Assembly: GCA_019058315.1 (NCBI GenBank)
Contig: JAHPZH010000005.1
Location: 320,601 to 384,600, forward strand
Source of the DNA: Candidatus Helarchaeota archaeon
Lineage (GTDB): Archaea > Asgardarchaeota > Lokiarchaeia > Helarchaeales > RDOG01
Direction of reading: 5' to 3'
Length of the DNA stretch: 64,000 nucleotides
Part shown: in pieces, positions 13,333 to 28,182 of the stretch
Layout: each line of letters begins with the position of its first letter
Position numbering within the stretch: the stretch's first letter is position 1
Notes under the pieces: model-generated
Databases searched by the model: none
What the model saw: only the letters and a program-made list of their open reading frames with translations
Told to the model about the DNA's origin: nothing
Program-made: the position numbers and the translations under genes

Positions 13333-14511
13333 TCAAATTCTTCCTATTGTCTCAAATGGTATTTTATGACAAAACGGACAATCAACTGCACTATACATTT
13401 TTATCCAGCTTTTTAGATCTGATTCAAATTCTGGTTCAAACTCAAATAAGAGTTTTAATACTTGCGCTTTATTTAGTAGATAATTACCTTTCCAATTAAA
13501 ATTGACATAGTTTTTTTCATTTTTTACTTCAAAGTGAATATTTTTTTGTTGTTCAGTTTTTTCAAAGCTCAAATTGATCTCAAGCTCTTTATGATTATCA
13601 TACCAAATGCCACAACTAATTGGGTGTATATTTTTATGGATTTGGTAATTTAATTCCAAAGTATCTATATTTTCTAAATTTATTTGATAGAAAAAACAAG
13701 CCATGTAAGTTTTTTTTGTCTTTGGACAAGAATATAATCTCTTTTGATCAGCAATTTCAATAATATATGACTCTCCGATATGTAATTTTTGGAAAATATT
13801 CTTAAAAGTATCATGGGGAACAAGAGCATTTACTATATTTAGTTTTTTATTTTGATGTTCATAAATCTCGGGTTGGATTTCAAAAGGCTGTCGATTTTGA
13901 TCCAAAATCTGTAGATTGTACTTATCAGATTTTGAAAAAAGTGTTATATAATTAATGGGAGGTGTTATATTTGACAATTTCAAATAATTTCTTTTCTCAT
14001 TATAATCCATAAGACCATCTTTTTGGATTTTCCAATCAACAGATTTTTTTAATATCCATGTGTATCCTGTATAATTTGTAAAGAAGCTTGAAAGTTCTTC
14101 ATATTTTTTAAACCAGAATTCTTTTTTTCCTTCCAAGCTTGGTTTATCTTCATCTAAAGGTAAGAGTCGTAACAAACCATCTATCTTTTCTTTTATTCTC
14201 CAGAAATCAGAGATTACACGATATCTTTTTCTCTTTATTTTTTCAATTAAGCCAATATTTTTTAAATCATTTAAAGCACGACGGATATTATGTATTGGTT
14301 CATTTAATTTTTCACTCAATTCCTCTGTAAACTCACCCTTCTTGCTATGCAACAGTTCTTTATACAGATTTAGGGCTAGACCCTTTTTTCCACCTATAAC
14401 CCTTCTCCATGCTCCAATTACATTTTTACTAATCTTATTAAAATCAAGAGCTAAAGTTAAAAATCTCGAAATCTTATTTTCATACGGTTTATACTCTCTT
14501 ATTTCAGCCAT
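13333..14511 (-). CDS. Winged-HTH protein with uncharacterised C-terminal domain (putative regulator)
   Basis: FTEELSEKLNEPIHNIRRALNDLKNIGLIEK wHTH; C-terminal CPFC; divergent from the ArcS/RaSEA-like pair. Confidence 0.6.
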   Translation of the reverse strand: MAEIREYKPYENKISRFLTLALDFNKISKNVIGAWRRVIGGKKGLALNLYKELLHSKKGEFTEELSEKLNEPIHNIRRALNDLKNIGLIEKIKRKRYRVISDFWRIKEKIDGLLRLLPLDEDKPSLEGKKEFWFKKYEELSSFFTNYTGYTWILKKSVDWKIQKDGLMDYNEKRNYLKLSNITPPINYITLFSKSDKYNLQILDQNRQPFEIQPEIYEHQNKKLNIVNALVPHDTFKNIFQKLHIGESYIIEIADQKRLYSCPKTKKTYMACFFYQINLENIDTLELNYQIHKNIHPISCGIWYDNHKELEINLSFEKTEQQKNIHFEVKNEKNYVNFNWKGNYLLNKAQVLKLLFEFEPEFESDLKSWIKMYSAVDCPFCHKIPFETIGRI

Positions 14512-14563
14512 TTTTATTCACAATTTAATATATTTCTAATAAAAATAATTATTCATTCTAATG

Positions 14564-14582
14564 TATTACATTTTTTGTAATA
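14564..14582. promoter_or_regulatory. Perfect inverted repeat TATTACA-N5-TGTAATA, candidate operator
   Basis: Lies in the 128-bp divergent intergenic region between the wHTH gene and the ArcS-like gene. Confidence 0.5.
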
Positions 14583-14639
14583 AAAAGTTCTTTAAAAAAA
14601 TAGTTTTTTATATATTAAGACAATAAATAAAAGATTCTG

Positions 14640-15275
14640 GTGTATATTTTGAACGATAATCCACTTTTGTTCTTAAAAGGTGTCGGTAAGGATTATGTAG
14701 ACAACCCTATTTTCAATAATGCTCATAAAAAAATTATTGCTGAATATAAACCTTCTATTTCTGGTAAAATTGCGCTTTTTACTGTCTGTTCATGGGGTAA
14801 ACCTTATAGACAAAGCTATATTCATTATTTCATATTGAGATCCTTAATTAAAGCAAATTTATTAGATAAATTACAATTAATTGTTATTACTAATGCAGGT
14901 GTGGTCCCATATGAGTTAAGTGATAATTATCCATATTTTGCATATGATTGGGATCCACTACTTGAAACTCCAAAAATAAAGAAATTATATATTGAAATAT
15001 TAAATAAAAGATTAAATGAATTTTTAGAACATAAGAAGAAGTACTACAGTAAATTTTGCTGTTACTTAAGACATCAAAGCGAATCTTATCAATCTATAAT
15101 AAATATTGGGTTTGCATTAAAGTTAAAAATCCCAAATTTCGCAATTCATGAAGATAAAATCACACAAGACGAAATATCTCAAGTTTCTTTAGATTTCTAT
15201 GAAGATCATGATTTGGTCTTAATTACTAAACGTAATCTGGATAATCTTGTGAATAAAATAAAGGAGATAATTTAA
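14640..15275 (+). CDS. Stand-alone archaeosine synthase (ArcS)-like catalytic domain (DUF5591-like)
   Basis: VCSWGKPYRQSYIH resembles the ArcS PCSxxKPYxxSxSH motif; GVVPYEL..YP...YD resembles GxVPRELE..YP..YD; no TGT-like or PUA domain. Confidence 0.75.
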   Translation: MYILNDNPLLFLKGVGKDYVDNPIFNNAHKKIIAEYKPSISGKIALFTVCSWGKPYRQSYIHYFILRSLIKANLLDKLQLIVITNAGVVPYELSDNYPYFAYDWDPLLETPKIKKLYIEILNKRLNEFLEHKKKYYSKFCCYLRHQSESYQSIINIGFALKLKIPNFAIHEDKITQDEISQVSLDFYEDHDLVLITKRNLDNLVNKIKEII

Positions 15276-16000
15276 TGCTAGGTTCATGGTTTGATCAGGA
15301 TAAACAGGAAATTACTGTTATTTTAACTAATTTTCCATGTTCCTATAATCAATGCACTCATTGCCCTTTTGATATTGAAAGTATAGATGACGAGAAAGAA
15401 GTTACTATCACAAATAAACAAATAATTGATGAAGCTATAGAAAAGGTCGTGGAATTTGACCTTAAAAGAGTGAAGATTTTTAATGGAGGCAGTTTTCTTG
15501 AGTTACCAGATGAGGTATTTCCAATCCTTAAATCAATAACGGAGGGTAAGGATGTAAGCATAGAATCTAGACCAGAATTTCTCTCCAAAAAATCAATAGC
15601 ACTCATTTTTGATAAATTAAAACCTTTAAAACTTAATGTTTTCATTGGTTTTGATTCTGCGGATGATAATATTCGAAATGTCCTCCTTAATAAGGGTATT
15701 CCAAAAAGTGAATTAGACCGTATTTTAAATGAATTAAAAGATATTGAGAATGTCCAATTCTTTTCATATGTATTATTTGGTATCAGGGGAGTATCTGAAG
15801 AATCAGTTAAAGAAAGTGTTCTCTATTTTAATAATTATTTAAATGGAGTTTCCGCTATTGAATTTAGAGAAAATCCAAAATCTGAATTAAAACATCAAAA
15901 AATATCAGAATCGCTTAAAAAATTCCTAATTCAGAATTGTTTAAATGTTGATTTTATAGGGGATGATGATGAACAATGGTTATTGCCCGAAGAATCTTAA
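15275..16000 (+). CDS. Radical SAM protein, RaSEA (archaeosine biosynthesis, TIGR01210)-like, short form
   Basis: TVILT..CSYNQCTHC, VKIFNGGSFL, IESRPEF, IGFDSADDNIR..LNKG; TAATG stop/start coupling with the ArcS-like gene. Confidence 0.75.
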   Translation: MLGSWFDQDKQEITVILTNFPCSYNQCTHCPFDIESIDDEKEVTITNKQIIDEAIEKVVEFDLKRVKIFNGGSFLELPDEVFPILKSITEGKDVSIESRPEFLSKKSIALIFDKLKPLKLNVFIGFDSADDNIRNVLLNKGIPKSELDRILNELKDIENVQFFSYVLFGIRGVSEESVKESVLYFNNYLNGVSAIEFRENPKSELKHQKISESLKKFLIQNCLNVDFIGDDDEQWLLPEES

Positions 16001-26237: not shown

Positions 26238-26906
26238 TTACTTTTCATATTCAATCGGATCAATTAGTCCTGCCATTTCAAAACCATTTAAGCGTAATAG
26301 GCATGAATCGCATTGTCCACAAGCTTTTTTACCACCTTTATAACAGCTCCAAGTTTTTTCATAGGGAACATTTAATTTTGACCCAAGTTGAATAATCTCT
26401 CTTTTATCCATATGGATAATTGGTGTTTTAATGTTAATATTTTGTGCTTTTGATCCTAATTGAATAGCTTTTTGCATCGCTTTTATGTATTCAGGACGGC
26501 AATCTGGATAACCAGAATAATCTATGAAGTTCATACCTGCAAATATAGTATCAGCACCAATTATTTCAGCATAAGCAGCTGCAAAAGCTAGAAAAATAGT
26601 ATTTCTCATAGGAACATAAGTTACAGGAATTTCACTTGTCATCTCTTCCATTTCTCTGTCTAAAGGAACCTCAATATTTTGATCGGTAAGAGCCGAACCC
26701 CCAATTTGAGTTAAATCAACTTTTAATATCTTGTGTTCTTTAGCTCCCACTGAGCTTGCAATATTTTTTGCGGCATCTAATTCTCTTTTATGTCTTTGTC
26801 CATAGTCAAAAGAGAGGGCATATACTTCATAGCCTTGATCCTTTGCATAATATATTACTGTAGATGAGTCCAATCCTCCAGAAAGTAAGCAAATTGCCTT
26901 TGTCAT
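26238..26906 (-). CDS. queC: 7-cyano-7-deazaguanine (preQ0) synthase
   Basis: LSGGLDS, DYGQRH, TYVPMRN, YSGYPDCR, WSCY..CGQCDSC. Confidence 0.97.
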   Translation of the reverse strand: MTKAICLLSGGLDSSTVIYYAKDQGYEVYALSFDYGQRHKRELDAAKNIASSVGAKEHKILKVDLTQIGGSALTDQNIEVPLDREMEEMTSEIPVTYVPMRNTIFLAFAAAYAEIIGADTIFAGMNFIDYSGYPDCRPEYIKAMQKAIQLGSKAQNINIKTPIIHMDKREIIQLGSKLNVPYEKTWSCYKGGKKACGQCDSCLLRLNGFEMAGLIDPIEYEK

Positions 26907-26919
26907 TCATTAATCCCCT

Positions 26920-27384
26920 TTATAAATCCCCATATGCAGCCCAAGAGCCCGTATTTTCATTAAGCATTATTTGAAATTTTTTAACATTAAGCCTTTCTTT
27001 TAAAATTGAATAGATATATTGAGCTAAACATTCCGCAGTTGATGCATCAATTGGTATTTGGGCTATATCTTCTTTGGGTATTGAATAGAATTTCTCAGTC
27101 TTTTTAATTTTAATGTCTAAATTATTTCCATTTTCATTAACATGGATAGCAGGATTTTTCATAGGTAGAATTAATTTATGATCCAGATGTTCTATCGATT
27201 CTAGAATTATCTTTTTTACTTTTAAAAAATCAATAATCATAGAATTATTATCCAAATCCCCAAAAATCTCAATTTTAACATAGTAATTATGGCCATGTAT
27301 CCGAGAACATTTATCATGTTCAATTAAAAAGTGGGCAGCACTGAAATTTAGTTTTGGATCATCTAAAATTAATTTGTGACTCAT
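26920..27384 (-). CDS. queD: 6-carboxy-5,6,7,8-tetrahydropterin synthase
   Basis: FSAAH, CSRIHGHNY (CxxxHGH), LDH, STAE; lies between queE and queC. Confidence 0.9.
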   Translation of the reverse strand: MSHKLILDDPKLNFSAAHFLIEHDKCSRIHGHNYYVKIEIFGDLDNNSMIIDFLKVKKIILESIEHLDHKLILPMKNPAIHVNENGNNLDIKIKKTEKFYSIPKEDIAQIPIDASTAECLAQYIYSILKERLNVKKFQIMLNENTGSWAAYGDL

Positions 27385-27396
27385 TTTATCATCTCA

Positions 27397-28182
27397 TTAT
27401 AAATATCCTAGAAATTTATGAGTTTGAACAGAAATTCCTATTTGATCTGGGGTGAGATACTTAGCTGCAGCTTCTGTTAATTTGCAAATATGTTGAAAAT
27501 TAGGAATTATTGCTTTATTTTTTTTCGCACTTACTATTTGAATAGCTAATGGAACATCTAATTCTGATAATCGACTGGCATACCATTCAATATTTTCAAC
27601 TTTTGTGGAAATTGTTACCACAACTTTCGCAAAAATCTTCTTCTGTGCATTTACAAAAAATTTTATGGTCTGAAATTCTTTTTCCACTATCTTTTTCCAT
27701 TCTTTTAATTTGATTGCCGTTTCATCTTTTATATCACAACAACAATAATCAAAAAACTCGACAATTTTTTTAGCATTTTCAGGTAAAGATCCATTAGTTT
27801 CAAGATAAAGTTTAAAATCTGATAATTGTTCTACCAACTCGCATAAAAATTCTATTTGGTAAAGAGGTTCTCCACCTGTAATACTGATTGAATGGAGATC
27901 TGGAGTGGAGATTTTATTAATCCAATTTAAAATTAATTCCACATCAACAGGATTTTGTAGATTGATGAAATCACCACATCCAGGAGTCTTTTCCACTTTA
28001 AAATCTTTGATTTTCACAGTTTGTGCAAACGGGGAATCACACCAGACACATGGATGCGAATCTTTAGAAAAATTGCAACCTGCAAAACGAATGAAGCATT
28101 GTCTTTTACCATAACAGCTACCTTCTACTGCAAACCCTTCGCCTTGAAATGAAGAAAAAATTTCTACTAAGTATCCTGGCAT
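27397..28182 (-). CDS. queE: 7-carboxy-7-deazaguanine synthase (radical SAM)
   Basis: EIFSSFQGEG, FIRFAGC, CVWCDS, ITGGEPL, LETNG, QTHK. Confidence 0.92.
   Translation of the reverse strand: MPGYLVEIFSSFQGEGFAVEGSCYGKRQCFIRFAGCNFSKDSHPCVWCDSPFAQTVKIKDFKVEKTPGCGDFINLQNPVDVELILNWINKISTPDLHSISITGGEPLYQIEFLCELVEQLSDFKLYLETNGSLPENAKKIVEFFDYCCCDIKDETAIKLKEWKKIVEKEFQTIKFFVNAQKKIFAKVVVTISTKVENIEWYASRLSELDVPLAIQIVSAKKNKAIIPNFQHICKLTEAAAKYLTPDQIGISVQTHKFLGYL

Follow-up and report, generated by a model that had tools for sequence, protein, structure and literature searches.

The two-gene locus and its protein families

The 64,000-nucleotide window analysed here (contig JAHPZH010000005.1, positions 320,601 to 384,600) comes from a Candidatus Helarchaeota archaeon and carries two translationally coupled genes, named here mini-ArcS and mini-RaSEA, which specify a stand-alone catalytic core of the archaeosine synthase ArcS and a short radical S-adenosylmethionine (SAM) partner. 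We consider, with a probability of about two in three, that the pair is a minimal two-protein archaeosine synthase with an ordinary role in tRNA. The pair and its surroundings are as follows:

14640–15275, plus strand: mini-ArcS, 211 aa, stand-alone DUF5591 domain (ArcS C1 catalytic core), GTG start
15275–16000, plus strand: mini-RaSEA, 241 aa, short radical SAM partner
15263–15277, plus strand: coupling junction, read from the sequence; the TAA at 15273–15275 overlaps the ATG at 15275–15277 by one base (TAATG)
14512–14639, no strand: divergent intergenic region, 128 bp, AT-rich, read from the sequence
13333–14511, minus strand: divergent neighbour, 392 aa, with a weak N-terminal winged helix-turn-helix (wHTH) at residues ~48–100
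26238–26906, minus strand: queC (TIGR00364, 239.7 bits, above cut-off)
26920–27384, minus strand: queD (match to the QueD model below cut-off but specific)
27397–28182, minus strand: queE (match to the QueE model below cut-off but specific)

Both proteins belong, at the superfamily level, to the families that an earlier note on this DNA had named for them, and their motifs are conserved. The 211-aa protein matches Pfam PF17884 (DUF5591) at 38.4 bits against a cut-off of 26, and carries the ArcS catalytic motif as VC-SWG-KPY-RQ-S-YI-H, from C50 to H62 (C-X3-KPY-X2-S-X2-H). Residues C50, K54-P55-Y56, S59 and H62 are invariant across 18 homologues; the leading P of the published motif (PC-X3-KPY-X2-S-X2-H) is replaced by V in Asgard members. 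Homologues of the 211-aa protein are all 200–240 aa long and come from Hel-, Hod- and Lokiarchaeota and from Desulfurococcales/Pyrodictium, those of the 241-aa protein lie on contigs with matching lengths, and the closest relatives of the pair are found in metagenome-assembled genomes (MAGs) of Helarchaeota and Hodarchaeota. An alternative start (TTG at 14649) would give a protein of 208 aa, the length of the closest homologues. Canonical ArcS is considerably longer (about 575–700 aa), and in Asgard archaea has the domain composition TGT + DUF5591 + TGT_C2 + PUA, whereas ArcS models align to the 211-aa protein in the C1 region only (model positions 283–416) and the TGT-like N-terminal, C2 and PUA domains are all missing, in agreement with the earlier note. 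The AlphaFold2 (AF2) model of the protein (predicted local distance difference test, pLDDT, 91) has as its best fold match in the PDB the protein AF0587 (2Q07; E 3e-4, probability 1.0), which we take to be a fragment of an ArcS.

A tree of DUF5591 domains (IQ-TREE, mixture model, quick search) resolved three clades, with support from the Shimodaira–Hasegawa approximate likelihood ratio test (SH-aLRT) of 99 for a mini clade of pair and fusion proteins, 95 for canonical ArcS and 97 for short proteins linked to TGT genes. The 211-aa protein lies in the mini clade as the sister of a Helarchaeota sequence, nested among Bathyarchaeia and Nitrososphaeria.

No Pfam family matches the 241-aa protein. 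It was described before as RaSEA-like with CX4CX2C spacing, and this description stands: TIGR01210 (RaSEA) is matched at 59.6 bits, below cut-off and at model positions 13–185 only of about 313, and the cluster motif is C22-X4-C27-X2-C30. Within the mini-RaSEA family the CX4CX2C triad, FNGGSFxELP and ESRPE are invariant, SAM-binding motifs included. Compared with a canonical Asgard RaSEA the protein shows 26% identity over 206 aa, has CX4CX2C in place of CX9CX2C and, at 241 aa against about 370 aa, is missing some 130 C-terminal residues. Its best solved relative is the queuine lyase QueL of Clostridium spiroforme (PDB 6P78; E 1.2e-15 by sequence, 61 bits), and its predicted structure, a radical SAM partial TIM barrel, superimposes on 6P78 with template modelling (TM) scores of 0.71/0.74. 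QueL is of the same size and CX4CX2C spacing, and it breaks a C-N bond in the side chain at C7 of a 7-deazaguanine, as the 241-aa protein is predicted to do. They differ in that QueL, a bacterial enzyme without a DUF5591 partner, converts free queuine to preQ1, whereas the 241-aa protein is tied to an ArcS core. An exhaustive profile search returned only about four full-length clusters (at 50% identity) above 270 bits, after which scores fell to 94 bits or less.

In the radical SAM trees, which were quick searches with an unreliable root on a single long outgroup, the pair-type proteins form a clade (SH-aLRT 96) that is sister to a bacterial clade whose proteins do not exceed 262 aa (100), the two together being supported at 99 (94 in FastTree). 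Members of the bacterial clade score 128–183 bits to 6P78 and it is therefore identified as the QueL family; the 241-aa protein falls outside it, in its own monophyletic sister clade. The QueL family (P0132, P0172, P0071, P0169 and the sister clade) includes members from Auribacterota. The radical SAM domains of the fusion proteins described below group near canonical RaSEA. A tree that joins pair, QueL and fusion was not rejected by the approximately unbiased (AU) test (p-AU 0.45), so the histories of the two subunits are compatible with one mini lineage, with QueL arising from it or beside it. A constraint that placed pair and fusion in one clade gave p 0.008 and was set aside as mis-specified, since QueL groups with the pair. 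The tree suggests that QueL may have come from an archaeal archaeosine enzyme, or that both share a common origin. The complex prediction from alignments of the two pair proteins gave a score of 0.00, which is no verdict and is counted on neither side.

The coupling by TAATG noted earlier is exact, and a GGAG (15263–15266, read from the sequence) precedes the mini-RaSEA ATG. In the divergent intergenic region, a TATA-like TTTATATA at 14607–14614 lies ~26–33 nt upstream of the mini-ArcS GTG as part of a putative promoter, possibly for a leaderless transcript. The 392-aa gene on the other side of this region had been called a dedicated regulator. It is indeed divergent and has a wHTH, although all matches are weak (TrmB 22.5 bits, Sta1 23.1, phrog_1368 27.5, with the TrmB, Lrs14 and Sta1 matches below cut-offs); a dedicated role did not hold, as the protein has no homologue at any of the 80 related loci described below. 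The gene is single-copy in the genome and is a divergent neighbour outside the conserved module. The pair had also been seen as an AT-rich block, but the GC content of its genes (26.6 and 29.6%) is ordinary for a genome of 30.5% and corresponds to the 10th–50th percentile of 1-kb windows, on which ground we rejected the idea that the pair is foreign DNA. Partial synteny with another Helarchaeota genome (the pair and a GNAT gene), taken with the normal GC content, points to a resident gene rather than a mobile island. No TGT-like gene was found near the pair at this locus, and queEDC lies about 10 kb away (26238–28182, minus strand), as stated earlier.

Distribution across archaea and 7-deazaguanine genes of the host

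A scan of species genomes for related loci gave 80, distributed over Helarchaeota, Nitrososphaeria, Bathyarchaeia, Desulfurococcales, Acidilobaceae, Pyrodictiaceae, Thermoproteales and the carriers of fusions. Coupling or fusion of the two proteins is obligatory across this phyletic range: a pair or a single-chain fusion is present at about 78 of the 80 loci (Asgard, TACK, Altiarchaeota, DPANN), and the two genes are adjacent or overlapping at about 60, in both gene orders. Fusions occur at 18 loci (Altiarchaeota, DPANN such as Iainarchaeota and Micrarchaeota, and others) as proteins of 414–439 aa in which an N-terminal radical SAM domain is followed by DUF5591 at the C-terminus, and a further one of 472 aa is encoded by an Asgard genome (G004). 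The fusions (414–472 aa) have the same minimal domain content as the pair, their DUF5591 domains fall in the same clade (99), and both forms occur in genomes with TgtA and without canonical ArcS; the differences are that one chain replaces two coupled genes and that the radical SAM domain is near canonical RaSEA instead of QueL. The commonest other neighbour of the pair or fusion is a gene of PF02592 (Vut_1/YhhQ), at 23 loci. The YhhQ/QPTR family transports preQ0 and preQ1 (PMC11130926). Other genes that recur beside the loci have housekeeping roles (MCM, Hef, TatD, HisA/F).

Complementarity was assessed in 12 genomes: that of the window (G000), the Asgard fusion genome G004 and ten diverse pair or fusion genomes (G301–G310). 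All genomes in this analysis except G000 are MAGs, in which an absence means 'not found'. One TgtA is present in each of the 12 (484–572 bits; 487–557 bits in G301–G310), and full-length ArcS was found in none. A QueF-family gene was not found in nine of the ten genomes G301–G310, by a PF14489 search of uncertain sensitivity for QueF-like proteins, and QueC was not found in eight of ten.

The host genome is 5.8 Mb in 12 contigs, is 94% complete and encodes an arrestin-fold protein. The earlier note had proposed searching it for arcS, raSEA, tgtA and dpdA. The genes of the window are the best or only matches for both ArcS and RaSEA, and neither a full-length ArcS nor a canonical RaSEA was found. 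A canonical TgtA is encoded on contig C10 (542 aa, TIGR00432, 490 bits). For DpdA, the NF041059 search of the genome gave only a bacterial-type Tgt, at 24 bits. The single TgtA is accompanied by an unfused QueC, and as there is no second QueC the genome has no Gat-QueC. Directly upstream of the bacterial-type Tgt gene (373 aa, TIGR00430, 461 bits) is a gene for QueF (126 aa; G000:C3:535258–536830, minus strand), an arrangement shared by G301, a Helarchaeota relative in which QueC is encoded at a distance of 8 kb. The host QueF keeps the NADPH motif ELKSLKLY, which together with the adjoining Tgt identifies it as a true reductase and not a QueF-like archaeosine synthase, and indicates that a bacterial-style preQ1/queuosine branch coexists with the archaeosine branch. 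With TgtA present, no QueF-like protein or Gat-QueC and no other ArcS or RaSEA homologue, the pair is the only archaeosine synthase candidate in the host genome.

The earlier note had raised the case in which the missing domains are encoded as separate genes. A free TGT_C2+PUA protein does exist (171 aa, G000:C1:203027–203542, adjoining a proteasome-activating AAA ATPase gene), but it belongs to TgtA: it is present in all TACK and Asgard genomes tested, those with canonical ArcS included, and stands beside tgtA in five, which identifies it as a C-terminal subunit split off from ArcTGT rather than from ArcS. Every TACK and Asgard genome examined has ArcTGT in this split form, whereas it is unsplit (576–580 aa) in the fusion-bearing G309 and G310. 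No conserved separate gene for the TGT-like N-terminal domain was found among pair-bearing genomes.

An orphan 324-aa protein of the host (G000:C5, ~116.1–117.1 kb; L017:955–1926), encoded downstream of a gene with arrestin N and C domains, consists only of the C-terminal zinc-binding half of TGT (PF01702, 31.9 bits). It was considered as a detached ArcS N-terminal domain or a DpdA and rejected: it has no phrog_887 match, does not significantly resemble the DpdA-like proteins of genomes G195 and G199 (see below), and is not conserved in other pair-bearing genomes. On contig C3 (G000:C3:627504–631274) at least ten tRNA genes lie within 4 kb (ARAGORN), with identities Asn, His, Tyr, Val, Phe, Trp, Ala and Cys and one undetermined; among the matches listed, elsewhere there is one on C1 and none on C2. 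This array looks unusual for an archaeal chromosome and perhaps belongs to a mobile element or virus.

Interpretation of the pair and its alternatives

As a minimal archaeosine synthase, the pair would act at the end of the following route. PreQ0 would be made by QueCDE, or in many relatives imported through YhhQ, and inserted into tRNA at G15 by TgtA. Next, the 211-aa DUF5591 core would join lysine, through its epsilon-amino group, to the preQ0 nitrile. The 241-aa radical SAM subunit would finally break the C-N bond of the lysine and remove its carbon skeleton, leaving the amidine, archaeosine (G+). Homology with the ArcS-RaSEA of Thermococcus kodakarensis argues for this chemistry and for tRNA-bound preQ0 as the likely substrate. 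The euryarchaeal system shares with the pair the DUF5591 C1 core with its motif, the radical SAM [4Fe-4S] triad, the coupling of the genes, and co-occurrence with TgtA and a preQ0 supply, while both pair proteins form clades apart from canonical ArcS and RaSEA. The ArcS of T. kodakarensis requires neither the L-shape nor the sequence of tRNA, and its minimum substrate is the preQ0 nucleoside, a 5'-phosphate accelerating the reaction (PMC11298593). The TGT-like, C2 and PUA domains can probably be spared, since even a full-length ArcS will act on a preQ0 nucleotide. One earlier paper mentions archaeal C1 domains that stand alone (PMC10516641); we found no paper on the short radical SAM partner, on the two-gene module as a unit or on the link to QueL.

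Several observations weigh against this assignment. The scores are low when measured by equivalog models, the 211-aa protein reaching 26–30 bits where ArcS cut-offs are 440–600 (NCBIfam NF040592/NF053620), and the 241-aa protein standing at 59.6 bits where that of TIGR01210 is 212. No tRNA-binding domain is present in the pair and none is dedicated to it, and the trees place the radical SAM subunit of the pair with QueL, an enzyme of the free base, and apart from canonical RaSEA. Genome G240, of the same order and 93% complete, has TgtA (484 bits), and no DUF5591 or RaSEA was found there, so TgtA does not strictly require the pair; either the genes are unassembled or tRNA modification stops at preQ0. 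A short DUF5591 protein of one Lokiarchaeia genome (G195, below) belongs to the mini clade and lies beside a DpdA-like TGT, so this core can be taken into use elsewhere. The QueF-like search detected its Sulfolobus acidocaldarius control at E ≤ 0.1 only, and we found no paper in which a member of the family was examined biochemically or genetically.

Some of these points favour a route in which the pair acts on free preQ0 as base, nucleoside or nucleotide, in the way that QueL acts on free queuine. The G+ base or the lysine adduct would then be inserted by TgtA or salvaged, and even so the cell might end up with archaeosine in tRNA. In favour of such a mechanism, the radical SAM subunit is the sister of QueL, with the same size, CX4CX2C motif and fold; the pair is without an RNA-binding domain, the YhhQ base transporter adjoins at 23 loci, and a full-length ArcS takes the preQ0 nucleoside and its 5'-monophosphate (PMC11298593). 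With the nucleoside as its minimum substrate, however, the ArcS of T. kodakarensis does not use the free base, and both subunits are homologous to a complex that acts on tRNA, which makes the tRNA route more parsimonious. The ArcTGT of Haloferax volcanii is not known to insert the archaeosine base, and this also counts against the free-substrate route, which we regard as unlikely. Synthesis of the archaeosine base or lysine adduct outside tRNA, whether for assembly before insertion or for a purpose other than tRNA, is similarly doubtful. The earlier note had suggested an amidine-forming pathway of the latter kind. This is not supported: TgtA occurs in 12 of 12 genomes, full-length ArcS was found in 0 of 12, and no DpdA was found in the host genome. 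The note had itself set against its proposal the case that these are the only ArcS and RaSEA of the genome and form an ordinary split pathway, which is largely what was found.

A role in DNA modification is a different matter, and here two kinds of short DUF5591 protein have to be separated. In a sample of 301 Asgard genomes most DUF5591 domains occur in open reading frames (ORFs) of 630–760 aa, which are canonical ArcS. Several Asgard genomes with a canonical ArcS-RaSEA operon also have a short DUF5591 gene with, directly after it, a gene of the TGT superfamily (350–392 aa), with no radical SAM gene. These TGT-linked proteins score up to 89.7 bits to the viral family phrog_34505, compared with 43.8 for the 211-aa protein, and they, rather than the pair, appear by sequence to be the cellular counterparts of viral ArcS2 and DpdA and the candidates for a DNA role. 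At L053 (G199:C135), L043, L052, L035, L044 and L144, ArcS2-like DUF5591 proteins (194–287 aa) are encoded beside TgtA-like genes of 373–392 aa; the carriers belong to Asgard families f30 and f23, with one MAG from Pyrodictiaceae, and the f30 genomes also have canonical ArcS-RaSEA. In the comparison of phylogenies and neighbourhoods, which the earlier note had suggested, short pairs form, with the fusions, their own widespread clade, and the TGT- or DpdA-like context belongs, apart from the exceptions below, to the other clade of short DUF5591 proteins.

According to the DNA-based explanation, the pair would turn dPreQ0 in DNA into dG+, a conversion that viral ArcS2 performs together with DpdA, and the modification would serve self-marking or anti-restriction. 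In Vibrio phage nt-1, dG+ is produced by an ArcS2 that consists of the core only and by DpdA2 (PMC10516641), and like mini-ArcS the viral proteins (also in Sulfolobus virus STSV2; phrog_34505) are stand-alone DUF5591 domains without RNA-binding domains; their partner is a DNA transglycosylase and not a radical SAM enzyme, whereas the pair has the radical SAM partner and no DpdA was found in its genome. Two loci bring a mini-clade core and a DpdA-like protein together. In the Lokiarchaeia genome G195 (L030; G195:C48:11693–15256) a 200-aa mini-clade DUF5591 gene is followed by one for a 350-aa DpdA-like TGT, with no RaSEA beside it. This genome also has a canonical ArcS-RaSEA operon, and its short DUF5591 protein is an exception within the mini clade, on a long branch. 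Upstream is a fragment of an archaea-specific SMC-related ATPase, and the locus is a candidate island for 7-deazaguanine modification of cellular DNA. In a Desulfurococcaceae MAG, a 338-aa DpdA-like TGT (L065:1479–2495, minus strand; E 2e-12 to the G195 protein) is encoded 1.8 kb upstream of a mini pair. These cases are outweighed by the rest of the evidence. The best match to NF041059 in the host genome is the bacterial-type Tgt, the orphan 324-aa TGT-like protein is without a phrog_887 match and not conserved in pair-bearing genomes, and the TGT-linked short proteins are a separate clade (97) that is closer to phrog_34505 and coexists with canonical ArcS-RaSEA. The context of the pair is housekeeping and not defence, and a tblastn search of 50,697 phage records with the 241-aa protein gave no match. 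A DNA role for the pair is thus very improbable.

Least probable of all, the 241-aa protein could be a queuine lyase that feeds preQ1 to the bacterial-type Tgt, its DUF5591 partner doing something unrelated; QueL is its best solved relative and the host has a bacterial-type Tgt and QueF, but the protein does not fall in the QueL clade (it scores 61 bits to 6P78, clade members 128–183), proteins of its family always accompany DUF5591, in a coupled gene or in one chain, and do so for the most part where TgtA is present alone, without QueF or bacterial Tgt, and the host makes preQ1 de novo (queCDE and queF).

Implications for archaeosine synthesis

The module is a variant of a known system and not a new kind of pathway. 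If the pair is indeed a minimal archaeosine synthase, a catalytic core of about 450 residues would be enough for both steps, and the TGT-like, C2 and PUA domains of canonical ArcS would be accessories. The relation of the radical SAM subunit to its sister QueL would provide a testable tie between two C-N lyase chemistries on 7-deazaguanines, and proteins this small would be well suited to studies of structure and mechanism in the lysine-adduct route. The final step of archaeosine synthesis would also be assigned in many genomes of Desulfurococcales, Nitrososphaeria, Bathyarchaeia and Helarchaeota, where proteins of the pair type are annotated only as 'DUF5591' and 'hypothetical'.

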